Assembly (NCBI GenBank): GCA_963741255.1
Contig: CAVUHM010000013.1
Coordinates: forward strand, 50,584-114,583
DNA: 64,000 nt
Direction of reading: 5' to 3'
Source: an uncultured Gammaproteobacteria bacterium
GTDB lineage: Bacteria > Pseudomonadota > Gammaproteobacteria > Steroidobacterales > Rariloculaceae
Shown: positions 4,804 through 18,488 of the stretch, in pieces
Position numbering within the stretch: the stretch's first letter is position 1
Layout: each line of letters begins with the position of its first letter
The notes under the pieces: model-generated
The model's database searches: none
Told to the model about the DNA's origin: nothing
What the model saw: the letters and a program-made list of their open reading frames with translations, nothing else
Translations under genes and position numbers: made by a program

Positions 4804-6474
4804 TCAGCCGATCTTTTTGTAGCGTATCCGGTGGGGCTGATCGGCGTCGTCGCCCTTGCGCCTTCTCAAGTCCTCGGCGTAGTCGGCGTAGTTGCCCTGG
4901 AAGAACACGACTTCGCTGTTACCTTCGAACGCCAGGATGTGGGTCGCGATGCGATCCAAGAACCAACGATCGTGCGAGATCACGACGGCGCTGCCCGGGA
5001 AGTTCAGCAGCGCGTCCTCGAGCGCGCGCAGCGTCTCGACGTCGAGGTCGTTCGTCGGCTCGTCGAGCAGCAGCAGGTTGCCGCCGGAGCGGAGCAGCTT
5101 CGCCAGGTGCACGCGGTTGCGCTCGCCGCCCGACAAGAGGCCGACCTTCTTCTGCTGATCCGTGCCGCGGAAGTTGAAGCGGCCGACGTACGCGCGCGAC
5201 GGCGTCTCGTACGTGCCGATGCGCATGATGTCCTGACCGAAGCTGATCTCTTCCCACACCGTCTTGTCACCGTTCAAGCTGTCGCGGCTCTGATCGACGT
5301 AGGCGAGTTGCACCGAGTTGCCGGTGCGGATCGTTCCGGCGTCCGCCTTCTCCTGTCCGGCCATGATCCGAAACAACGTCGTCTTGCCGGCGCCGTTCGG
5401 GCCGATCACGCCGACGATACCGCCGGGCGGCAAGCTGAACGATAGATTCTCGAACAGCACGCGGTCGCCGAACGACTTGCCGATCTTGTCGGCCTCGATC
5501 ACGAGATCGCCGAGCCGCGGGCCGGGCGGAATGTAGATTTCGTTCGTCTCGTTACGCTCTTGGAACTCCTTCGACGTGAGCTCCTCGAAGCGCGCGAGCC
5601 GCGCCTTGGCCTTCGCGCGCCGCGCGCCGGGGTTCGTGCGGACCCACTCGAGCTCGGTCTTGATCGTGCGCTGCCGCGCCGCTTCCTGTTTTTCCTCGAG
5701 CTTGAGGCGCTGGTCCTTCTGCTCGAGCCACGAGCTGTAATTGCCTTGCCACGGGATGCCGTGGCCGCGGTCGAGCTCCAAGATCCAGCCGGCGACGTTG
5801 TCGAGGAAGTAGCGATCGTGCGTCACGGCGATAACCGTGCCGGGGAACTCCTTCAAGAACCGCTCGAGCCACGCGACGGATTCCGCATCGAGGTGATTCG
5901 TGGGCTCATCGAGCAGCAGCATGTCCGGGTTCGACAAGAGCAGTCGGCACAGCGCGACGCGGCGGCGCTCTCCGCCCGAAAGCGACTTCACGTTCGCGTC
6001 CCACGGCGGCAAGCGCAAAGCGTCGGCCGCGACCTCGAGCTTGCGCTCGATCTCCCAACCGCCGACCGCATCGATCTTGTCCTGCAGCTTGCCTTGTTCC
6101 TCGAGCAGGCGATTCATCTCGTCGTCTTCGAGCGGCTCGGCGAACTTGTCGCTGACCTCGTTGAAGCGTTTGATCAGGGCCAGCGTGTCCGCGACGCCTT
6201 CCTCGACGATGCCTTTGACGTTCTTGGCCGGATCGAGGTCGGGTTCCTGTTGCAGGAATCCGATCTTGATGCCGGGCTGCGGCCGCGCTTCGCCTTCGAA
6301 GTCTTGGTCGACGCCCGCCATGATTCGCAGCAGCGTGGACTTGCCAGAGCCGTTAACGCCCAGCACGCCGATCTTGGCGCCGGGGAAAAAGCTCAGGCTG
6401 ATATCGCGCAGGATGTAGCGTTTCGGCGGCACGACCTTGCCGACGCGATTCATCGTGAAAATGTACTGGGCCAT
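4804..6474 (-). CDS. ettA: Energy-dependent translational throttle protein EttA (ABC-F)
   Basis: [19 protein letters not shown] start; two ABC cassettes ([23 protein letters not shown]); C-terminal PHRIRYKK. Confidence 0.97.
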
Positions 6475-6546
6475 GGGTCTTGCAGTTGCGGGCGGGGCGA
6501 GGATTATCCGCGGCCGTGCCACGGCTCGGCAACTACACGAGCGGGG

Positions 6547-7320
6547 TCACTGCGCGTCGGGCGCGTCCGAGTCCGCTTCGGTCGGTGGTGCTGCCGTGCC
6601 CGCGAGCGCCGAGAGGATCTCCAGCGCCTGATCCTCGGAGACAGGGAAGAAGCGTCCGAGATCGCACCCGAGCACTCGCCGCGTCCCGCCCTCGGCGTAG
6701 GGGAAGATATGGTCTTGGTCGCAAACACGCGTGCTGAGCCCTGCGCCGACTGGACCCCCGATGCCCTGAGGGCCGATCACACCACGCGCTCCGGGGCTCG
6801 CGGGGGCGCCTGTGGCGGACGAGCTTTGGACGAAGAACTCACCGTCGCGTGCGAGTCCGGGGCACGCGGCCTCGAGAACGTTCAGAAAGGCGGCCCGGTC
6901 GCCGAGGAAGAAGATCACGGCGCCATCGTTGATGACGCCGGTCCGCTCGATCGTGGAGCCTTGCAGACATTCTCGGCTTTCGCCGGCAAGGTGCTCGGCC
7001 AAGCGCAGATTCGCGAGCGGTCCGACGCGCTCGGCGTAGAGATCGGTGATCACCTTGTGCTCGTCGACTGCGCTGTTGTTGCGTGCGACGAGCACCGACC
7101 GCACGGACGCTGGTGCCGCGTCGCCGCCGGCGGCCGCGAGGTCGGCCTTTAGACAATCCGTGTAACCGATGATGGCGTCCGAATAGCGGCGAACGTCGAG
7201 CAGGACGTTCGCGACGTCGTCACCAGTCTGTTCCGGTATTACGGCGATCGCAGGCAGGTCGCACGCGACCGCGTTCGAGCAGAGAAACAGGAAGCCGAAC
7301 GCGAAGCGGCTCGGTGTCAT
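6547..7320 (-). CDS. Secreted Cys-containing hypothetical protein with DUF6491-like C-terminal domain
   Basis: Signal peptide ending AVA-C; Cys pattern CLQ...FLNVLEAACPGL...RVCDQD...CDLGRF. Confidence 0.6.
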   Translation of the reverse strand: MTPSRFAFGFLFLCSNAVACDLPAIAVIPEQTGDDVANVLLDVRRYSDAIIGYTDCLKADLAAAGGDAAPASVRSVLVARNNSAVDEHKVITDLYAERVGPLANLRLAEHLAGESRECLQGSTIERTGVINDGAVIFFLGDRAAFLNVLEAACPGLARDGEFFVQSSSATGAPASPGARGVIGPQGIGGPVGAGLSTRVCDQDHIFPYAEGGTRRVLGCDLGRFFPVSEDQALEILSALAGTAAPPTEADSDAPDAQ

Positions 7321-7405
7321 GGGGCGCCTCTATTGTTCTTGTTGTCGCAACGGAACCGCGAGCTTACGGAGGATACGCCGAGTGAACGTGAGGCTCCACT
7401 GTCGG

Positions 7406-8539
7406 TCACTCGTCGATGCGCAATGGGGGATCGGTCGGGCGTCGTGACCACATTGCCGCGCTTTCGGGGTCGCACTCGTACGGATAGATCGGCGTGTCGT
7501 TCGGAGCGCGCGTGAGCTCGATTTGGCCCGTGTACGGTCTGGACATGTAGACGGGGTCCCACAGCCTGTACGTGTAGACCAACGTGCGCCCGTCATCGGT
7601 CACGGTGAAACGTTCGGTCAGCGTCTTTCGTTGTGAGGAGGGTAGGTCAGCTCCGCCGAGCGCTTCGTCGTGACCGAGGCCCCAGCGCGACGGCGGGAAA
7701 TCGTGGCTTTCCACCGTGAGGACGCCGTCGGCGATCCGCGCCTTCGCGCGGCCGAACCGGCCGCTCGCGTCGACGGCAACGCGCTCGCCGGCGAGCGGTA
7801 TCGTCCGCACGACGTTGTAAGCCTCGTTGCGCAGCGTCACACGTTCGTCGTCGAGTGTGAGCTCGAATAAGAAGAACGGCGCTAAGAACACGCTCGGAAC
7901 GTTCAGTGGTTCGCACGTATTCGCGGGCGATGCGCTGGGATCGAAATTTCGCCGCGCTGCCTCGCCGGCTTCATTCAAAACGAGCTTTGGGCTGTCCGTC
8001 GGAAAGTTCAGCAACGGCTGCTGCCAGCGGCCCTCGATGCCTGCGGTGCTCGGAGGTGAGGCCGGCACATCGTCTGCTGCAGTTTCGTCGCTCAGAGCCG
8101 CAGCGGCTCGTTGGATGCTCGGAGCGAACTTGCGGTCGGTGTTCATCATGATGAACTGATCGCCGAATGCATCGGTGACGCGCAATGCCTTCGCGAAACG
8201 GAAGCTCCGATCGCGATGCGGGAACGCGAGAATCGTAATGTCGTCACCGCGTGCGAACGTGTCGGGCTCAACGCCGAGCGTTTTCAACATCGGCGCGGAC
8301 TCCCACTCGATCTCCCAGCGGTTGTGCTTGGATTCGAGCGGCTCGTCGCCGTTCTCCTCGAACAGCTGCGCGTCGACGACGAAGGACGCGTGTGGGCTCC
8401 GCAGCTTGAAGTCGACGACGATACCGCGCAGCTCGATTTGCGTGTCGAGATCGAACATCGCGCCGGAATGATGGGCGTAGGTTTGGCAGCACCAGAAGGC
8501 GCCGATGCAAAGCGCGGCTCGAGCGGAACGTCGTCCCAA
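7406..8539 (-). CDS. Secreted DUF6152-family protein fused to a second uncharacterised domain
   Basis: Signal peptide then HHSGAMFD...LRGIVVDFKLRSPH...WEIE; TTG start with GGGGAG SD. Confidence 0.75.
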   Translation of the reverse strand: MGRRSARAALCIGAFWCCQTYAHHSGAMFDLDTQIELRGIVVDFKLRSPHASFVVDAQLFEENGDEPLESKHNRWEIEWESAPMLKTLGVEPDTFARGDDITILAFPHRDRSFRFAKALRVTDAFGDQFIMMNTDRKFAPSIQRAAAALSDETAADDVPASPPSTAGIEGRWQQPLLNFPTDSPKLVLNEAGEAARRNFDPSASPANTCEPLNVPSVFLAPFFLFELTLDDERVTLRNEAYNVVRTIPLAGERVAVDASGRFGRAKARIADGVLTVESHDFPPSRWGLGHDEALGGADLPSSQRKTLTERFTVTDDGRTLVYTYRLWDPVYMSRPYTGQIELTRAPNDTPIYPYECDPESAAMWSRRPTDPPLRIDE

Positions 8540-8565
8540 CGCTGTCTCCCCGGACGAACGGCGTC

Positions 8566-8637
8566 ACTATAGCCGGCGCCAGGGCGTTTGCTGATCTGTT
8601 GCCCCACTTTTCCCTTCGTTTTCCCCCGCGAATCCCA
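8566..8637 (-). promoter_or_regulatory. Putative activator-dependent promoter of DUF6152 gene (-10 TATAGT plus phased GGGA repeats)
   Basis: + strand ACTATA at 8566-8571; TCCC cores at 8611, 8622, 8633, with GCCC at 8601. Confidence 0.6.
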
Positions 8638-8725
8638 TACGGCTACGCTGCGGTGCCGGTTGGCTCGACAGCCTTGGGGAGCGCGGCTACGCTAGCGGCG
8701 CTCTGTTGCAGCGGGCCACGAGCGG

Positions 8726-11674
8726 ATGAGCGGGCGCAGCGATCGGATCCGTGAGTTGTACGAGGCGGCGCTGAAGCGGCCGATCGGAGAGCGGGCGGCG
8801 TTCGTCGCGGCGCAGACGAAAGACGATCGCGACTTGCGGCAGCGAGTCGAAGCGCTGCTCGCGGGGCAACACGACACGCAGATCGCGGGCTACGAATCGA
8901 GCGACGGCGACTCGGCGGTGCTCGCGACCGGCACGCGTGATCGGCCAGCTACCGGATCGACGGCCCGCTCGGCGCCGGCGGCATGGGCGTCGTGTACCGC
9001 GCGACGGACACGAAGCTGAACCGCCCGGCCGCGATCAAGGTGCTGCCCGAGAGTCTCGCGGACCCCGAAGCGCGGCGGCGCTTCCAGCGCGAAGCGCAGA
9101 TGGCGTCGTCGCTGAACCATCCGCACATCGTGACGGTGTACGACGCCGGCGAGTATCGCGAGCGGCAGTACCTGATCACCGAGTACGTGGACGGCGGCAC
9201 GTTGCGGCAGTGGGCGGGGCGGCCGCACGGCTGGCGGTCGATCGTCGAGCTCCTGATCGGCGTCGCGGACGCGGTCGCGGTCGGCGCACGAGGCCGGGAT
9301 CCTGCACCGCGACATCAAGCCGGAGAACATCCTGCTCGCGAAGAGCGGCTACGCGAAGCTGGCGGACTTCGGTCTTGCGAAGCTGCTGGAGACGGATCCG
9401 CTCGCGGACGATGCGTTCGCGGGAGTCAGGCTCGATCAACACAGCTCGCTGGTCGGCACGGCGGCGTACATGTCGCCGGAGCAGGCGCAGGGGCGGCCGC
9501 TGGATGCGCGCAGCGACGTGTACTCGTTCGGGTTGGTGCTGCACGAGCTGCTGTCGGGCGAGCGGCCATCGGCGACGCGCTCGCTGGAGCAGCGGCACGG
9601 AGCGGAGGCCGAGGCGCTCGCGCCGTTGCCGGCCGAGGTGCCGGCGGAGCTGCGCACGATCGTCGGCAAGGCGCTCGAGCCCGAGCCGGCCGATCGCTAT
9701 CAGACCATGCGCGAGCTCGTCGTCGATCTGCGCAGGCTCATGCGACGGTCCGGCATCGATGTCGATCCAGGCTCGTTGCCTGCCGACGGAGCCGTCGCGC
9801 TCGTGACCGCCGCTGCGGCGGCCGCGCGCGGCCACAGGAATCGGACGATCACGATCGTCGGTGTGCTTGGCGATGGCCGATGATCGCGGCCGGCGCGGGC
9901 TTCTATGCGCTTCGGCCGGCGCCGGTGAGCGCCATCGCCGTGCTGCCGTTCGAGAACGCGAGCGGTAACGACGACGACTCGCACATCAACGAAGGCCTCG
10001 GCACCGAGCTGCGCCGCCGGCTCATGGGGGTGCCGGGGTTGCGAGTGCAGGCGCGGTCGTCGTCTGTCAGCGTCGTCGAGCTCGGGCTCGACCCTCGTGC
10101 GATCGCGCAGCGACTCGATGTCGGCGTGACTCATCAACGGTTCACTGAGCCGGCGCGGCAACATGCTGAGCGTGCTCGTCGAAGCGTTCAACGCGGACGG
10201 TGAGCTTCTCGCGACCTGGAGCCACGACGGGGATGACGACGAGTTGCTGGCATTGGAGAACGAGATTGCGACGGACGTCTTGGCCTACTTCGCGCCGACC
10301 GCGGTCGCGACCGCGGTCGCGTCGACGCAGCAAAGCGAATCCGCACACGAGCTCGTGCTGCGCGGAACCGAGCTCGAGCAGCAAGTCCGGGACGATATCA
10401 CCGTCGATGAAGAGAAGCATCAAGCTGCGATCGATCTCTACCGGCGCGCGACGCTGGCAGATCCGAAGTCGATCGAGGCGCACAGCCGGCTCGCAGGCGC
10501 GCTCGTCTACATCGGTGACAGCGAGGCCGCAAGCTCGTCGTTGATCGCGGCGTTGGATCTGGTGAACTCCAATGTCCTAACGACGTCAGCGGAGCTCTCG
10601 GACCTGTACCTCACGTTTGCGCTCTATCTATTGCAGGTCGAGCGCCCCGGTATCGAGCAATGGTATCGGTCGGCGATTCAGGTGAATCCAAACAATGCCG
10701 ACGCGCAGGGGGCATTTGCGCAATGGCTCATGATTCACAATCAGTTCGCTGTTGCCGAGACGTATTTTGCTTACGCGCTCGAGCTCGACCCGGAGCGGTT
10801 GTCGCGCTACGTGGACTTCGCGTACTACTACACGATAGGGGAACGCATGGACCGCGCGCGCGAGCTCGGCGACGATATCCGCGAGCGGTTTCCGAACGCG
10901 CGCGGCGACTTGGCGTTGGCTCGGCTCTACGAAAACACCGGAGAGCTCGACATTGGCATCGCCTACGGTCTCAGGGCGTATCGAGCCGCACCGGAGGATC
11001 CCGACACCTTCGGCCAGGTGGCCGAATTGTACGCGCGGATCGGTCTATTCAATGAGGCCGAAGCATTCGACCCCGATTACGAGCTCAATCGGCTGTACTT
11101 TCGCGGTGAGTACCCACGTCTCGTCGACGCGGCCCAGGAGGCGATGATCGACCTTCCGTTTCAGGACAAGATTCGATTCATGCTCGCGTTCGCCTACAAC
11201 GCGGTCGACGATCCGCAGAACGCGATCTTTGTTCTAAAAACGGCCGGCATCCCGATCGAGCCTGGCTCGGAATTCCTGACCAGCGCCATCGACGAGGCCA
11301 TGACGACGTACATCGACGCGTTGCAGGCGGTCGACGCGAACAGCGCAGAGGCGCGCGAGCTCGCGACGAAAAAGGCAGGGGCCCTCGACCCCAGCCTCGA
11401 CCGATCGTGGTGGGTGCTGTCGTACCACAGCTGCACACAGGCCCAGCTCGGGAATCTCGACGAATCGCTCACACTGTTCGAGAGGATCAAAGAGAGCGAG
11501 GGGCTCGCCATATCCCCGTTTCTTCGGGACGCATTATGCTTTCGCCGGCTTGCCGCCAACCCGCGTTACGAAGCCGTACTCGATCACCTCGAGGAGCGCC
11601 AAGCGGGATTCCGTGCGAAATTGCCCGCGACGTTACAGGAATACGGCGTCGCCGACGTGCGACCCGCAAGATAG
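8726..11674 (+). CDS. Membrane Hanks-type Ser/Thr kinase with TolB-like and TPR domains (split by several indels)
   Basis: LGAGGMGVVY, AIKVL, HRDIKPENIL, DFG and GTAAYMSPE across frames; hydrophobic segment about 9850-9910; SAIAVLPFEN...GLRVQARSSS; TPR helices in ORF 10163-11674. Confidence 0.85.
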
Positions 11675-11691
11675 CGCGGAGAGCGGCGCCG

Positions 11692-12177
11692 TTATCCCGC
11701 TCGCAGCGTGCGGTGAATCACGCGCAGGAACTCCGTGAAGTCGTCGGCGCACGAAACGACGCGTTCGTAGGTCGCAGCCGCGACCTCCTTCTGGCCTTCG
11801 TCGGTCGCTATCGGCACATACTTCGTCGCGGTGCTAGCGATCTCCGCCGTCACGACTTCGCGGTCGTTGTACGCCGCTAAGACGACGTCGTATTTCGCTT
11901 CTGCAACTCGTCGCTGATCAGGTTCGCCGACTCGACGACACGCACGTGTGTGACCCGCGGCTTCGAGTCGCTCCGCAAGCGCTATCGCTTCGACATACAG
12001 CACGTTCGTTTCGATGCTCGGCACGACGAACAGCACGTTGCCGGGAAGCGGTGCTGTCTGCGCGCGATGCACGCCGCCGGCTCGGAATGGACTTTCGCCG
12101 CACGCGTGCGCGTCGAGCGCAACGAGTGAGAGAGGGAGGACGGCGCCGAACATCGACACGATTACCGCGACACGCAT
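11692..12177 (-). CDS. Secreted receiver-like (CheY-like) hypothetical protein, paralog A
   Basis: SD GAGGAG, ATG 12177; signal peptide ending AHA-CGES; NVLFVVPS...ERLEAAGH...KYDVVLAAYND; compensating indels about 11890-11945. Confidence 0.7.
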   Translation of the reverse strand: MRVAVIVSMFGAVLPLSLVALDAHACGESPFRAGGVHRAQTAPLPGNVLFVVPSIETNVLYVEAIALAERLEAAGHTRACRRVGEPDQRRVAEAKYDVVLAAYNDREVVTAEIASTATKYVPIATDEGQKEVAAATYERVVSCADDFTEFLRVIHRTLRAG

Positions 12178-12206
12178 CGTTCTCTCTCCTCTCGACGCAC
12201 GCCGGG

Positions 12207-12288
12207 ACACTAGCACGGCGAAGATTGGGCACGAGCGCCGACTACTGAATTTCCCGCGAAATCCCCGCCTTTTCCCCTGAGAATCCCC
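12207..12288 (-). promoter_or_regulatory. Putative activator-dependent promoter (extended -10 TGcTAGTGT plus four phased GGGA repeats)
   Basis: + strand ACACTAGCA at 12207-12215; TCCC cores at 12252, 12262, 12273, 12284. Confidence 0.65.
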
Positions 12289-12391
12289 TGTTAGTAGCCG
12301 GAGTGCGACCCTTATTGAGGCCGCACGCGGTCGGTGCCGCGTGCTTGGAGCGACGGCAGGGTCGCGGGTGTGTGGCCGAAGGGGCCGTGAG

Positions 12392-13348
12392 CTAGAACGG
12401 GCGTGAGAACGACACGCTCAACGCGTCGCGGAGCTCGAACACGTCCTCGGCCTGCACCATGCGGAGAACGGTGAAATTGATGACGTTTCGCTCGCCGAGC
12501 GACCAATCCACGCCGACGCCCATCGATCTTGTAGTTGTGCCGGATGATCTGGTCGTGGCGGTACCAGAGTTCGGATGCGAGTCCGGAGTTCTGCGGCGGT
12601 GAGATGCCGTCGCCGTTCTTCGAGGTGAGGAACACGTTCAGCGCAATGCGATCGTTGAAGAAGCGCACGGCGTCTGCGGTGACGCGCACCGCATCCGTGT
12701 CGACACCGAGCACGGAATCGGTCAACACGTAACCGGCTCGCAACGAGAAGAACCAGGGCAGGAACGGCGGGCGATATGCGAACGTCGAGCCGTACTCCAG
12801 CGTCTGCAGATTGCGCCCGACCGCGGAGGCTGCGAAGAACGGATAGTCGCTCGCCGGTATGCCATATTCGAGATAGGGCTCGACGATCACCTGCTGGTCG
12901 ACCAGGAGATAGCTTGCACCGAGACGCAGATCCTGGAAGAAGCCATGAAAGTGTCCGTCGTCGACGAACTCCGAGTCGTATTGCGGCGGCACGATGTTCA
13001 GCGGATTGTGCGACGGTCCGCCCTTCCACTCGCGGCTGATAAAAGGAAGGCCAGCGTTGACGGTCCAGCGGTCTTTGATTCGGTAGCTGACGGCGAAGTC
13101 GATCAGATGCGTCGTGATCGGTGCGGAGTTGATGACGTAGCCTTCACCCGTCAGGTTCTGCGCCTTCTGGTACTGATACGTGAAGGCCATCTGCCCGCGG
13201 GGCGCGGACGCTTGCAGCTCCTGCGCGTTCTGCGCGCGCGGTGCCGTCGTTTCGAACTCCTGCGCGTGCGCCGGCAGGAGCGGCCACGTCGACGCGCGGC
13301 CACGACGGCAACTGCGTGGAATACTGGTTTCGCCGCGAAGCGACGCAC
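12392..13348 (-). CDS. Putative outer-membrane beta-barrel protein with His/Asp-rich loops (indels near both ends)
   Basis: Signal peptide ending PAHA-QE; amphipathic strands (IDFAVSYRI, WFFSLRAGY, IALNVFL); frame-corrected C-terminus LSVSFSRPF* ending in Phe. Confidence 0.65.
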
Positions 13349-13365
13349 GGACGGGACTCTCTGAG

Positions 13366-13840
13366 CTACGAGGAAGCTTTCAGCGTGCGATGAATCACGC
13401 GCAGGAACTGCGTGAAGTCATCGTCGCGCGAGAGATAGCGCTCGTACGACTGCGCGGCGAGATCCTTCTGACCTTCCTCGGTCGCGACGGGCACGTACTT
13501 TGCGGTAGCGCCGGCGGTCTGCGCCGCGACGAGCTCACGATCGTTGTACGACGCCAGCACGATGTCGTACTTGCCGTTCTTCAATTCGTCGCTGATCAGA
13601 TTCGCGGTCTCGACGATGTGAACGTTGTGACCCGCGGCCGCGAGTCGATCCGCGAGCGCTCGTGCTTCTTCGCTCGGTGCAACGAGCAATACGTTGCCGG
13701 GAAGCGGCGCGGTCTGTGCGCGATACGCAGCACCGCGACCGACGCGGAACAAGCTCTCGCCGCACGCGTTGCGCATCGAACGTGACGAGCGAGCAGGAAG
13801 CGACGGCCCCGACCACCGAAACGATCACCGGGATACGCAT
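13366..13840 (-). CDS. Secreted receiver-like hypothetical protein, paralog B (indel near 13772)
   Basis: ATG 13840 with GGAG SD; ACGESLFRVGRG...PGNVLLVAPS...GHNVHIVE...KYDIVLASYND; clear DNA and protein similarity to 11692-12177. Confidence 0.72.
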
Positions 13841-13874
13841 GTTTTTCTCCATCCCAGCCCCGACTCCGTAGCCG

Positions 13875-13946
13875 AATCTAGCACAGCCTGTTGCCAATTA
13901 CGGATGGGCCAAGCCCATTCCCCCGGATTTCCCCCTGTTTTCCCCC
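13875..13946 (-). promoter_or_regulatory. Putative activator-dependent promoter (extended -10 TGcTAGATT plus three phased GGGGA repeats)
   Basis: + strand AATCTAGCA at 13875-13883; TCCC cores at 13919, 13930, 13941. Confidence 0.65.
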
Positions 13947-14064
13947 GGAAACCTCCGGCCGTAAACTGGACCGAGGAGTCAGAAAAACGGCCTCGGCATC
14001 ACCCTCGAGCTCTGCAGCTCGCTCGGCGCCGCGCGAGCGGTTCATGGTAGAACAGGAACGGAAT

Positions 14065-15010
14065 ATGTCGCACCCAGTGTTGCTGATCGCCGGGCCGGAG
14101 CTCGCCACGTACGGCTTTCCGCACGGCCATCCGTTCGGGCCGGACCGCTACGCCGCGTTCATGACCGAGCTCGAACGCTCCGAGTGTCGCGCCGACGCTC
14201 GAGCGCAAGCCGCCGCGGCTGGCCACTCGCGAGGAGCTGCTGCACTTTCACACGCCGGCGTACGTCGAGCGCGTCGCGGAGCTCTCCGAACGCGGCAGCG
14301 GGCTGCTCGATGCCGGCGATACGCCGGCGTTCCCCGGCGTGTACGAAGCGGCCGCGCACGTCGTCGGCGGCACGCTCGAGGCGCTCGCGGCGATTGTCGC
14401 GGGACCTACGCGCCGCGCATTCATCCCGATCGGCGGGCTGCATCACGCGACACGCGACAGCGCCGCGGGGTTCTGCGTGTTCAACGATTGCGGAGTCGCG
14501 ATCGAGGTGGCGCGGCGCTTGCACGGCATCCGTCGCGTCGCGTACGTCGACATCGACGCGCATCATGGCGACGGCGTGTTCTACGGCTTCGAGCAGGATC
14601 CGGATCTGCTGTTCGCCGACATGCACGAGGACGGTCGATTTCTGTATCCCGGTACCGGCAGCCGCAGCGAGACCGGCCGCGGGCCGGCCGTCGGAACGAA
14701 GCTGAACATCCCGTTGCCGCCCGGCGCCGACGACACGGCGTTCCACGCGGCATGGGACGAGATCGAAGCGTATCTCGACGCGGCCAAGCCGGAGCTGATC
14801 CTGCTCCAATGCGGCGCCGACTCGCTGGCCGGCGACCCGATCACGCACTTGCGCCTGACGGCCGAAGCGCACGCGCACGCGGCTCGCCGCCTCGGCGTGC
14901 TCGCCGACCGCTACGCGAACGGCCGCGTGCTCGGCATGGGCGGCGGCGGCTACAACCGCGCGAACCTCGCGCGCGCCTGGACGCGCGTCGTCGAAGAGCT
15001 CGCCGGGTAA
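14065..15010 (+). CDS. Zn-dependent deacetylase, HDAC/AcuC family (indel near 14200)
   Basis: [51 protein letters not shown] motifs. Confidence 0.9.
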
Positions 15011-15548: not shown

Positions 15549-16676
15549 ATGGCCGACGCGATCGATCACGAGCACATGGCCGCCGCGCTGCACCTCGCCG
15601 CGAACGGCCTGTACGACACGAAGCCGAATCCGGCGGTCGGCTGCGTGCTCGTCAAAGACGGGCGCGTCGTCGGCACGGGTTGGACGGCGCCGGCCGGCGG
15701 GCCGCATGCGGAGCGCGTGGCGCTCGCCGCGGCCGGAGCGGCGGCTCGCGGCGCCACCGCTTACGTGACGCTCGAGCCGTGCTGCCACACCGGCCGCACG
15801 GGTCCGTGCTCGAAGGCGCTGATCGAGGCCGGCGTCGCGCGCGTCGTGTTCGCCGCGCACGATCCGAATCCCAGAGTCGACGGCGGCGGCGCGAGGGAGC
15901 TCGCGGCTGCGGGTATCGAGGTCGAGGGTGGCGTCATGGAGGACGCCGCGGAACCGTTGAATCGCGGCTTCTTCGCGCGGATGCGGCGCGGCCTGCCGTG
16001 GGTCCGCAGCAAGCTCGCGGTCAGTCTCGACGGCCGCACCGCGCTCGCGAACGGCGAAAGCCAATGGATCACGAGCTCGAGCGCGCGCGCGGACGTTCAT
16101 CGCTGGCGTGCACGCTCGAGCGCGGTGCTGACCGGAAGCGGCACGATCGTCGACGACGATCCGTCGCTCGATGCTCGCCGCGAAGAAGCCGGCATCGCGG
16201 CCGAGCTCGGCATCAAGCAGCCGTTGCGCGTGATCATCGACGCGGTGTTGAAGACGCCGCCGACCGCCAAGACGTTGTCGTTGCCGGGTGAGGTGATCGT
16301 GCTCACGACTCGGGATCTCGACTATCCGAAAGCGCGTGCGCTGACCGCAGCCGGTGCGCGTGTCGAAACGGTGAAGGGCAATGCCGAACACTGCGACTTG
16401 CACGCCGTGCTCGAGCGGTTGGCGGAGCTCGAGGTCAACGACGTGTGGGTCGAAGCGGGCGCGGGCTTGAACGGCGCATTGCTCGAAGCGGGCTTGATCG
16501 ACGAACTCATTATCTATATGGCACCGCGCTTGCTCGGCGATTCGGCGCGCGGAATGTTCACGTTGCCGGCCTTGGAGTCCCTGGCGGAGAGCCGGAACGT
16601 CGTGTTCGAGGATTTTTGCAAGGTGGGCGCCGACTTGCGGATCACGGCTCGGGTCAGTAGGGTGGCGGGCGCCTAG
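15549..16676 (+). CDS. ribD: Bifunctional pyrimidine deaminase/reductase RibD
   Basis: NPAVGCV, HAE, TLEPCCHTGRTGPC, SLDGRTA, WVEAG. Confidence 0.96.
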   Translation: MADAIDHEHMAAALHLAANGLYDTKPNPAVGCVLVKDGRVVGTGWTAPAGGPHAERVALAAAGAAARGATAYVTLEPCCHTGRTGPCSKALIEAGVARVVFAAHDPNPRVDGGGARELAAAGIEVEGGVMEDAAEPLNRGFFARMRRGLPWVRSKLAVSLDGRTALANGESQWITSSSARADVHRWRARSSAVLTGSGTIVDDDPSLDARREEAGIAAELGIKQPLRVIIDAVLKTPPTAKTLSLPGEVIVLTTRDLDYPKARALTAAGARVETVKGNAEHCDLHAVLERLAELEVNDVWVEAGAGLNGALLEAGLIDELIIYMAPRLLGDSARGMFTLPALESLAESRNVVFEDFCKVGADLRITARVSRVAGA

Positions 16677-16693
16677 GCCTCGCGGGGTAACGC

Positions 16694-17338
16694 GTGTTCT
16701 CAGGGTTGGTGAAAGGCGTCGGACGCGTGGCTACTCGCACCGATTCCGGTGGCGACCGCCGCTTCTCGATCGAGCTTGGCACCGCCGCGATCCCGCCGCT
16801 TGCCCTGGGCGGCAGCATTGCGGTCAACGGCGTCTGTCTCACGGCCGTCGCCGTGACGCCGCAAGGCTTCACGGCGGACGTGTCCGCGGAGACGCTGGCC
16901 GTCACGACCTTCGATAGCTTGCGTCCCGGCTCGCGCGTGAATCTCGAGCCGCCCCTCAAAGCCGGAGATCCGCTCGACGGCCATCTCGTGACCGGCCACG
17001 TCGATGGTGTCGGTAAGGTCGTCGAGATCGTACCGGTCGGCGGCTCGCAGCGACTCGTGATCGGCGTGCCCGCGGCGTTGTCGCGGTACATTGCCGCAAA
17101 GGGCTCCGTTGCCGTCGACGGCGTCAGTCTGACCGTGAATGCAGTTCGCGGCGCCGAGCTCGAGGTCAACGTGATCCCTCATACGCAAGCCGTTACCGTT
17201 ATCGGCGAGTACCGCGCCGGCACCGCTGTTAATATTGAGGTCGACATGTTGGCCCGCTATCTCGAGCGGCTCGTGCAAGCGGGCACGGAAAGCGGTCTCG
17301 ATCTCGCCACGCTGAGGAAACATGGCTACGCACGCTAG
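16694..17338 (+). CDS. ribE: Riboflavin synthase (alpha chain; ribC in E. coli nomenclature)
   Basis: MFSGLV, SIAVNGVCLT, GHLVTGHVDG, KGSVAVDGVSLTVN. Confidence 0.95.
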   Translation: MFSGLVKGVGRVATRTDSGGDRRFSIELGTAAIPPLALGGSIAVNGVCLTAVAVTPQGFTADVSAETLAVTTFDSLRPGSRVNLEPPLKAGDPLDGHLVTGHVDGVGKVVEIVPVGGSQRLVIGVPAALSRYIAAKGSVAVDGVSLTVNAVRGAELEVNVIPHTQAVTVIGEYRAGTAVNIEVDMLARYLERLVQAGTESGLDLATLRKHGYAR

Positions 17339-18488
17339 CACCGATAGCGCATTCGGCCTCGACACGATCGAGGACATCGTCGCGGCGATTCGCAACGGCC
17401 AAATGGTCGTGATCCTCGACGACGAGGATCGCGAGAACGAGGGCGACCTCGTGATGGCCGCGACGAAGGTTCGTGCCGAGGACGTCAACTTCATGGCGAA
17501 GTACGGCCGCGGCCTGATCTGCCTCACGTTGACACGCGAGCGCTGCGAGCAGCTGCGCCTGCCGTTGATGGTCAGCAACACGGACGTGCGACAGACCACG
17601 AACTTCACGATCTCGATCGAAGCGGCCGAAGGCGTGACGACGGGCATCTCGGCGCACGACCGCGCGCGAACGATTCAGGCCGCGGTCGAGGCAAATGCCT
17701 CGCCGAGAGACCTGCGGCAGCCGGGGCACATCTTTCCGTTGATGGCGCAACCCGGCGGGGTGCTGACGCGCGCGGGGCACACGGAAGCAGGCTGCGACCT
17801 AGCGCGGCTCGCCGGCGTCGAGCCCGCCGCCGTGATCGTCGAGATATTGAACGAGGACGGCGCGATGGCGCGGCGCGACGACTTGCTGCGGTTCGCGCGC
17901 CGGCACGACCTTCGCATCGGCACGATCGCCGACCTCATCGAATACCGGCTGCGCACCGAGCAATCCGTGGAAGTCATCAGCGAAGCCGACGTCGCGACCG
18001 AGTTCGGCGCGTTTAAGCTCGTGTGCTTCGAGGATCATGTGAATCGCGCAGTGCACTTGGCGCTCGTGCGCGGAAAGCTCGATTCCAAGACTCCGACGCT
18101 CGTCCGCGTGCACCGGCAGGACACGTTGAGCGACGTGCTCGGGCTCGCGGCGCCCACGCTGCACCGGCCACTCCGCGATGCGTTGCGCTTGATCGCGGAG
18201 CAGGGTCACGGCGTGGCAGTGATATTGCGGCCCGAGGAATCCGCCCGCGATCTCGTGCGTTCCGTGCAGTCGCTGTCGCAGCCGTCGGAGCCCGAGGTCG
18301 GCGTGTTGCGCGGGCGCAGCATGGATTTCCGCACGTTCGGAATCGGCGCGCAGATCCTGCGCGCCCTCGGCGTACGGCGCATGCGCGTGATCGGTGCGCC
18401 GAAACAGCTGCACGCGCTCTCAGGGTTCGGCCTCGAGGTCGTCGATTACGTCTCGGACGCCGGCGAACGGGAAGACGCGCATGGATGA
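17322..18488 (+). CDS. ribB: DHBP synthase fused to a degenerate GTP cyclohydrolase II-like domain (RibBX type)
   Basis: [10 protein letters not shown] and RAGHTEA in the RibB domain; C-terminal domain reads [15 protein letters not shown] and lacks the Zn-binding cysteines. Confidence 0.92.

Follow-up and report, generated by a model that had tools for sequence, protein, structure and literature searches.

Rows of 11-bp GGGGA direct repeats in a gammaproteobacterial gene module and a winged helix-FHA protein as their candidate regulator

The subject of this study is a stretch of 64,000 nucleotides (the window) from an uncultured Gammaproteobacteria bacterium, which corresponds to positions 50584-114583 of contig 13 (C13) in a source assembly of 2,664,743 bases and 16 contigs that is 64% complete (GCA_963741255.1, hereafter G000). 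A single 5.4 kb module of this window holds genes for a DUF6152 protein with a long extension (DUF6152x), a Ser/Thr kinase, two receiver-fold proteins (RecL2 and RecL3) and a putative outer-membrane beta-barrel, and three of its promoters are preceded by rows of G-rich direct repeats with an 11-bp period. Rows of the same kind are found in the modules of related genomes at the gene of a small protein, here termed wHTH-FHA, which joins a winged helix-turn-helix (wHTH) domain to an FHA domain. Our favoured interpretation, held with moderate confidence, is that the rows are binding sites of this regulator, which would be coupled to the Ser/Thr kinase, repress its own gene and activate promoters that have no -35 element.

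Phased repeats at three promoters and their register with the -10 element

An original prediction, made from the letters of the window, had described TCCC cores 10-11 bp apart in three minus-strand intergenic regions, with the first core 40, 40 and 39 bp from the -10-like hexamers TATAGT, TAGTGT and TAGATT, respectively, and had proposed that the arrays mark a regulon under one activator. Its observation is confirmed and its interpretation is partly supported. The core coordinates and the spacing match exactly (Table 1), and so do the three distances, that of site 3 to ~1 bp, when measured between the last letter of the core and the upstream-most base of the -10. Searches with the pattern GGGA-N6-7-GGGA-N6-7-GGGA find only four matches in the whole assembly, all of them at the three sites, and none in 100 dinucleotide-preserving shuffles, so that the arrays are rare. 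Triples at any other spacing class number 0-1 in the whole assembly. The unit of the rows is an 11-bp direct repeat with the consensus (G)GGGA(A/W)NNNNN. When examined for a tandem period, the window rows give 11/11, 11/11/10 and 11/11 bp, and those of the relatives give 11/11 in seven of eight cases and 11/11/12 in the eighth.

A position matrix was built from the rows of relatives only (36 units from 12 rows, with G000 excluded) and used to scan triples at 10-12 bp on both strands of the whole assembly. In this matrix, conservation within the unit resides in GGGGA and not in the A-tract, and the three window sites rank first, second and third in the genome (scores in Table 1), the next best match scoring 19.4. 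Because this match and the further, lower matrix matches fall within open frames of at least 120 aa, as do four two-unit matches, the site set in the assembled part of G000 consists of these three sites only. Thus, in place of the genome-wide set implied by a candidate regulon, the assembly holds three sites in one module. A looser triple pattern is not diagnostic alone: a search for three GGGA cores over 60 genomes of the family gives a background of ~1-3 matches per genome, with fewer in the reversed control, and three GGGAWW units in 40 relatives give 3 matches outside G000, to which we return below.

The original prediction had noted that the three promoters have no obvious TTGACA -35 element, in agreement with which a sigma-70 consensus scan of 7300-14300 gave 0 promoters with a -35. 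Judged from the conservation of their sequences, the -10 elements of the window look real. Homologues of the RecL genes, including those of other genera, keep an extended -10 of the form TGnTAnnnT (TGTGCTAGATT, TGCTATAGT, TGCTAGTAAT) in the same place while the rest of their upstream sequence differs, and the TGCTAGATT element of RecL3 is conserved among them. Sites 2 and 3 have divergent spacers but share the units and the -10. Of the 41 differences in a relative's contig, the 30 that were listed include 14 substitutions in the spacer of site 1 (8572-8597) and no substitution within 8598-8643. A MAFFT alignment of the three window promoters misplaces the site-3 -10 and served solely to show that the units align and the spacers do not.

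The spacings depend on the accuracy of the assembly, which differs from short-read contigs of close relatives by single-base lengths at 8935, 8949, 9282, 10128, 12526, 13772, 13886 and 13982. Since the short-read contigs omit single bases at the first six of these positions, the broken frames of the kinase, barrel and RecL3 genes seem to be due to assembly insertions and not to decay into pseudogenes. Base 13886, which lies in the spacer of site 3, is also absent from these contigs, so that the distance of 39 bp could be 38 bp and the spacings are reliable to ~1 bp.

In 16 further or related promoters, what appeared as a fixed distance to the -10 widens into a lattice of 11 bp. Within the genus, rows are also present upstream of the kinase promoters in G015, G008 (two contigs), G002 and G012, and some of the relatives' kinase promoters have a good TTGGCK-17/18-TATGCT pair. 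In all eight genus promoters examined (three of the window and five of relatives) the distances between core and -10 are 28, 39/40, 50/51, 61/62 or 72 bp (5-7 modulo 11); a four-unit row situated far upstream in G008 does not share this register. The same lattice is seen in metagenomes, where 70 RecL loci have 250 nt or more of upstream sequence and 8 of them a forward row, its cores lying at 39/40, 50/51, 61/62 and 72/73 bp in 8/8; two of the metagenome RecL loci (L171 and L172) look like one sequence from two samples. A further nine of the 70 have a reversed row only, where it forms the operator of a divergent gene, for either wHTH-FHA or a kinase. One of the metagenome loci with a forward row (L169) encodes a RecL 96% identical to RecL3 behind the same promoter as that of site 3. 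In two others (L176 and L178), with RecL 79% identical to that of the window, the wHTH-FHA gene is divergent from the RecL gene and each gene has one row.

A winged helix-FHA gene with rows at its own promoter

The modules of four relatives (G002, G008, G012 and G015) contain, in addition to DUF6152x, kinase, RecL and barrel genes, a gene for wHTH-FHA. The original prediction had suggested scanning near kinase-TPR and wHTH-TPR genes; in place of a wHTH-TPR partner, the relatives encode this protein of 216-222 aa, with Pfam matches to Trans_reg_C (8e-18) and FHA (2e-16). In a protein of 216 aa, the Trans_reg_C domain spans residues 21-95 and the FHA domain residues 128-191, and the Pfam scan finds no activation domain; likewise, no NCBIfam model matches above its cut-off. 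Among solved structures, its nearest relatives are the EmbR FHA domain (2fez, 2.9e-16) and the parts of CadC, PcoR and PhoB that bind DNA. The gene is present in 12 of the 22 other genomes of the genus, and in 12/12 of these its own promoter has a G-rich row of three units that lies downstream of an extended -10 and ahead of the start codon. In seven of the twelve rows, three cores match GGGA exactly at a spacing of 11 +/- 1 bp, and the other five are degenerate by eye, with one variant core in G006 and G020, an insertion in G012 and GGGC or GGC cores in G010 and G011. In six of the seven promoters with a clear TGnTAnnnT, the cores stand at +17/+28/+39 or +18/+29/+40, counted from where the -10 begins; in G012, +17 is kept and the insertion precedes units 2 and 3. 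The row of the wHTH-FHA gene therefore lies across the expected transcription start. Inspection by eye gave no evident sign that the recognition helix covaries with the core, which is GGGGA in some genomes and GGGCA in G010 and G011.

Two smaller observations concern these own-promoter rows. A truncated wHTH-FHA copy in G002 (L031 8254-8540; ~60 codons, then a stop) retains its own row and is directly followed by a second row and a kinase gene, and from this arrangement the G002 module appears to have been duplicated and to have partly decayed. In the window, single GTCGGGGC and GTCCGGGGA words downstream of the site-3 and site-1 -10 elements (13845-13870 and 8540-8560) resemble unit 1 of the operator at the regulator gene itself, and another GGGA comes after them at a spacing other than 11 bp.

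The association of rows with wHTH-FHA genes extends beyond the genus. We scanned the 110 nt upstream of the gene in 80 homologue loci, with one genome per species, from Steroidobacteraceae, other Proteobacteria and the Acidobacteriota (Vicinamibacterales and Thermoanaerobaculia among the groups covered), and counted cores at 10-12 bp against 8696 control windows drawn from the same loci. At least three GGGA cores are found in 16/80 upstream regions and 6/8696 control windows, and with the degenerate core [GT]GG[GA] these counts become 34/80 and 39/8696. All 34 rows have the coding-strand orientation and 0/80 are reversed, and they end 8-36 nt before the start codon, in the transcribed leader. 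In 43 of the 80 loci, a gene for a Ser/Thr kinase is found no more than 3 kb from that for wHTH-FHA, often starting 30-60 bp past the stop codon of the latter; being read from gene order, this pairing shows gene linkage only. The family is large, with at least 1130 representatives of 50% identity clusters matching the wHTH-FHA profile at E<=1e-30, most of which are 210-230 aa long. Literature searches, which covered few subscription journals, found no published description of a two-domain wHTH-FHA regulator or of its GGGGA operator, and the nearest published topics for FHA, OmpR-type and direct-repeat regulators were SARP, EmbR and general reviews.

Genes of the module and their surroundings

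The coordinates of the rows, -10 elements and genes are collected in Table 1.

Table 1. Repeat rows, -10 elements and genes of the module (positions of the window)
Feature	Coordinates	Strand	Description
Site 1	8600..8636	-	Three GGGA units 11, 11 bp apart (pattern match 8611-8636) and a fourth, degenerate GGGGC unit; TCCC core starts 8611/8622/8633; matrix score 26.7, rank 2; in the divergent intergenic region between the DUF6152x and kinase genes
Site 2	12252..12287	-	Four GGGA units 11, 11, 10 bp apart (two overlapping pattern matches); TCCC core starts 12252/12262/12273/12284; matrix score 25.0, rank 3
Site 3	13919..13944	-	Three GGGGGA units 11, 11 bp apart; TCCC core starts 13919/13930/13941; matrix score 35.1, rank 1
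-10-like TATAGT of DUF6152x gene	8566..8571	-	Site-1 cores 40/51/62 bp upstream
Extended -10 TGCTAGTGT of RecL2	12207..12215	-	Hexamer TAGTGT 12207-12212; cores 40/50/61/72 bp upstream of hexamer
Extended -10 TGCTAGATT of RecL3	13875..13883	-	Hexamer TAGATT 13875-13880; cores 39/50/61 bp upstream of hexamer
DUF6152x	7406..8539	-	377 aa; signal-peptide-like N-terminus (by eye); DUF6152 domain, Pfam PF19649 8.9e-13
Hanks-type Ser/Thr kinase with TPR-rich C-terminal part	8726..11674	+	Pkinase 2.2e-12 and TPR families; divergent from DUF6152x
RecL2	11692..12177	-	Exported receiver-fold protein, copy 2
Putative outer-membrane beta-barrel gene	12392..13348	-	Follows RecL3; assembly frameshift near 12526
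RecL3	13366..13840	-	Exported, CheY-like receiver fold; assembly frameshift near 13772

In DUF6152x, the DUF6152 domain is followed by a conserved C-terminal extension of ~260 aa that lies outside Pfam coverage, and orthologues in G002, G008, G012 and G015 are 51-57% identical over the full length. As judged by eye, the protein would start with His-His after predicted signal cleavage (AYA/HHS in the window and AHA/HHS in G008), which is reminiscent of N-terminal histidine metal sites. A literature search for DUF6152, in which few subscription journals were covered, yielded no paper. The window kinase was aligned to an orthologue of 979 aa, and the short-read contigs have one base fewer at the first four of the positions listed above (8935, 8949, 9282 and 10128). 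By eye, the kinase of the module spans the membrane and has its TPR part on the non-cytoplasmic side.

The original prediction had described RecL2 and RecL3, two paralogues with 60% identity, as exported receiver-like proteins. The fold part of this description is borne out by a model from a 15-sequence alignment (pLDDT 81), which has a CheY-like alpha/beta fold and, in Foldseek, matches the receiver domains of BfmR, PA1611, KdpE and PmrA (TMq 0.62-0.69, E >=4e-4); export is suggested by signal-peptide-like N-termini of both, recognised by eye, and at the level of sequence there is no Pfam or NCBIfam receiver match. An invariant D66 precedes strand 3 and does not follow it, and the usual phospho-acceptor position is not Asp (by eye). 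A nearly invariant ACGESLFRVG stretch stands directly after the signal-peptide-like part. Among the 151 genomes of the order, 10 have a homologue of RecL, and so do 5 of the 23 that make up the genus, both figures including G000. Upstream of the homologue in one genome of the same family (L013 of G041), a different short tandem repeat, with GGCGATCC-like units ~9-10 bp apart, occupies ~80-130 nt of the examined upstream stretch instead of GGGA rows. For the putative barrel, Pfam gives a weak match alone (Phenol_MetA_deg, E 0.1); in the metagenomes, 62 of 80 loci have a barrel homologue next after RecL, and the gene order suggests that RecL3 and the putative barrel gene probably form one operon.

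Genes for riboflavin synthesis adjoin the module at 15549-18488 (ribD-like, with deaminase and RibD_C, and ribBA-like, with DHBP synthase and GTP cyclohydrolase II), and an ABC-F type ATPase gene lies on its other flank at 4804-6522. Comparison of the window flanks with the relatives' loci by tblastx gave low-identity noise alone outside 7400-13900, with no synteny established past the module. The flanks are not common to the relatives, and the module therefore sits at different places in different genomes.

Regulatory model, alternative explanations and known systems

Based on the gene linkage, the own-promoter rows and the lattice described above, we propose that the binder is a small regulator with an N-terminal winged helix of the OmpR/PhoB/CadC type and a C-terminal FHA domain that would bind phosphothreonine. 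The Ser/Thr kinase of the module would sense an envelope signal, and the FHA domain would either read a phosphothreonine of the kinase or be phosphorylated itself, as EmbR is by PknH. The phosphorylation state would then alter the occupancy of the repeats by winged helices, with one protomer per unit along one face of the DNA helix. Autorepression is proposed because the row at +17/+28/+39 of the regulator's own promoter covers the transcription start, and recruitment of RNA polymerase by the bound regulator is proposed because the target promoters, which have units 28/39/50/61/72 bp upstream, possess an extended -10 and no -35. The predicted targets in G000 are the DUF6152x gene, the two exported receiver-fold genes and, via the operon, the barrel gene, possibly together with the divergent kinase gene. 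They carry export signals, as judged by eye, as would fit an envelope response. What the analysis shows are the sequences with their rarity and conservation, the lattice and the linked genes; that the regulator binds, in which direction it acts and how it connects to the kinase, as well as the activation of all targets by one regulator that the original prediction had put forward, are what we infer from this arrangement.

Several observations weigh against this interpretation, the foremost being that the wHTH-FHA gene was not found in the 64%-complete G000. The best tblastn match there (50% over 84 aa) is to another winged-helix gene at C16:13053, in which a CadC-like winged helix is followed by a different C-terminal part. 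The Trans_reg_C profile has no match on contig C13, and a search of that contig for a remnant of the wHTH-FHA gene at E<=50 gave nothing convincing (best E 0.06 over 30 aa). This bears out, for the window, the earlier claim that the activator is not encoded in the module; in the relatives, the modules do encode a winged-helix regulator of the OmpR type. With 36% of the genome missing, the absence of the gene from G000 is not evidence of absence. The orientation of the rows is not fixed, which is awkward for a directional head-to-tail activator: the row between the DUF6152x and kinase genes points toward DUF6152x in the window and, from the same place, toward the kinase in G015, and a four-unit row in G008 is inverted ~47 bp from the RecL -10. 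Because the G015 row is inverted in an orthologous intergenic region, the site-1 row may also serve the kinase gene. No row is present at RecL homologues outside the genus, nor at some inside it (G015, and contig 4 of G008), and the forward rows of the metagenome set are confined to 8 of its 70 RecL loci. Moreover, three units are odd for a family that usually binds as dimers, the related genomes are not independent samples, and an RNA-level role of the row at the regulator's own gene is still conceivable.

As an alternative, the rows may be bound by another protein that recognises phased G-rich repeats, either MraZ or another OmpR-type wHTH protein such as the CadC-like product of the contig-16 gene, and we consider this unlikely. 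Two of the three GGGAWW matches in relatives are mraZ operators, which read GTGGGAAAAAGTGGGAAAAAATGGGATT and stand right after TTGACA..TATAGT and before an MraZ-like gene. The mraZ promoter of G000 (GTGGAGAAAAGTGGGCGGAAATGGGCC) has the same 10-11 bp period in the same position after the -10, and MraZ is described as binding a series of direct repeats in its own promoter (PMC8475190). Judging from these sequences, the three G-rich repeats at the mraZ promoters (contig 8 of G000 at ~130760-130800, which is L008 ~1445-1485; L001 at ~1500-1526; and the minus strand of L002) are probably MraZ boxes. However, MraZ cores are TGG(G/A) and those of the rows are GGGGA, and the G000 mraZ operator is not among the 25 best triple sites of the row matrix. 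MraZ would also leave unexplained that the rows track wHTH-FHA genes over two phyla, always in the coding orientation. A different OmpR-type binder is favoured by the 15 Trans_reg_C genes found elsewhere in G000 together with the missing wHTH-FHA gene, yet the contig-16 wHTH gene has no row nearby. It is very improbable, in our view, that the rows act through nucleic-acid structure or RNA, as a G-quadruplex or as GGA-type sites for a CsrA-like protein in long leaders. Sites 2 and 3 do fit the canonical four-tract motif, and the coding-strand rows in the wHTH-FHA leaders, whose last unit could overlap the ribosome-binding site, are of the kind expected from an RNA role. Nevertheless, the quadruplex motif (four runs of at least 3 G with loops of 1-7 nt) is present in 4 of 11 rows, does not fit site 1 and is not conserved among copies, and distant homologues keep the period with TTGG or GGC cores, which are incapable of forming quadruplexes. 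An RNA role is also hard to reconcile with the occurrence of both row orientations in one orthologous intergenic region, and the Rfam scan of 7300-14300 gave no match at E<=1. The rows of the window and of the kinase promoters lie upstream of a conserved -10 (and -35), in register with it, which points to action on DNA at initiation.

Two further explanations dispense with a specific factor or with function altogether. That the rows are bent or UP-element-like DNA, in which phased A-tracts after GGGG boost weak promoters, would be in keeping with the absence of a -35 and with the several units that read GGGGAAAA at 11-bp phasing, but most rows have a single run of at least four A (2, 1 and 1 runs at sites 1-3, and 0-1 in each of eight rows from relatives), and it is GGGGA and not the A-tract that is conserved. 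Since curvature also fails to explain the rows downstream of the regulator's own -10, we regard this explanation as highly improbable. A functionless origin, as leftovers of promoter duplication or module shuffling, is suggested by the 60% identity of the RecL2/RecL3 paralogues, by the rearrangement of the module between genomes and by the truncated G002 regulator gene with its own row. It is scarcely credible given that the spacers of sites 2 and 3 diverged around retained units and -10 elements, that site 1 precedes a non-homologous gene, that the register with the -10 is kept in 16/16 promoters and that the substitutions at site 1 spare the row.

If the wHTH-FHA interpretation is correct, it reveals a large unstudied family of regulators (at least 1130 clusters at 50% identity) with a ready operator model. 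In its general form, about which our confidence is evenly balanced, the proposal is that wHTH-FHA is the DNA-binding output of a widespread pair with a Ser/Thr kinase, resembling a two-component system in which the reading of phosphothreonine replaces the receiver. Three 11-bp GGGGA units in register with the -10 would then repress the regulator's own gene when placed after the -10 and, 28-72 bp before it, would activate promoters of exported envelope proteins that have no -35. Routes from Hanks-type Ser/Thr kinases to specific promoters are known in few cases, for example EmbR and AfsR. The present analysis yields, from sequence alone, a kinase-linked regulator family with a predicted operator, an 11-bp position rule and predicted targets. 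The hosts of the system are uncultured soil Steroidobacteraceae and Acidobacteriota, and if the proposal is true, targets of such kinases could become predictable in many metagenome-assembled genomes.

Among known systems, the rows are like the operators of OmpR/PhoB regulators, such as the PHO boxes of Streptomyces PhoP and the GlnR boxes, in being direct repeats one turn apart with a core of ~5-7 nt, and the candidate shares the Trans_reg_C winged helix with these regulators. OmpR-family proteins bind units of 11-nt direct repeats, one protomer to each, and may activate or repress according to position (PMC6988585). The rows differ from OmpR/PhoB operators in their GGGGA core, in having three units and not pairs as the norm and in the 11-bp lattice 28-72 bp before the -10, and wHTH-FHA differs from OmpR/PhoB regulators in having an FHA domain instead of a receiver. 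The original prediction had named head-to-tail winged-helix activators of the OmpR/PhoB or SARP type, and the wHTH-FHA gene of the relatives agrees with the OmpR-type half of this proposal. SARP boxes are direct repeats with a spacing of 11 or 22 bp, found where the -35 is poor; their 3' repeat overlaps this -35 and stands 8 bp away from the -10 (PMC10936776). As the nearest core is 39-40 bp from the -10 in the window and 27-50 bp in the relatives, we rejected an assignment of the rows to SARP boxes (AfsR and others). MraZ boxes resemble the own-promoter rows of wHTH-FHA as three G-rich repeats of 10-11 bp period placed right after the promoter's own -10, and differ in their (G)TGG(G/A) core, in the different fold of the binder and in their location in the dcw cluster. 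The window rows were rejected as MraZ boxes on account of their GGGGA cores, the unrelated genes downstream and the position of the G000 mraZ on contig 8.

The nearest counterpart of the proposed regulator is EmbR of Mycobacterium tuberculosis with its kinase PknH, which has in common with the candidate a winged helix, an FHA domain and a partner kinase of the Hanks type. Phosphorylation by PknH enhances the binding of EmbR to promoters (PMC6213207). EmbR is a SARP, in which a bacterial transcriptional activation domain separates the winged helix from FHA, whereas wHTH-FHA consists of two domains only. We therefore rejected membership of the EmbR family (SARP-FHA), as the Pfam scan finds no activation domain. 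wHTH-FHA further differs from EmbR in being found in Gammaproteobacteria and Acidobacteriota, together with the repeat operator defined here.

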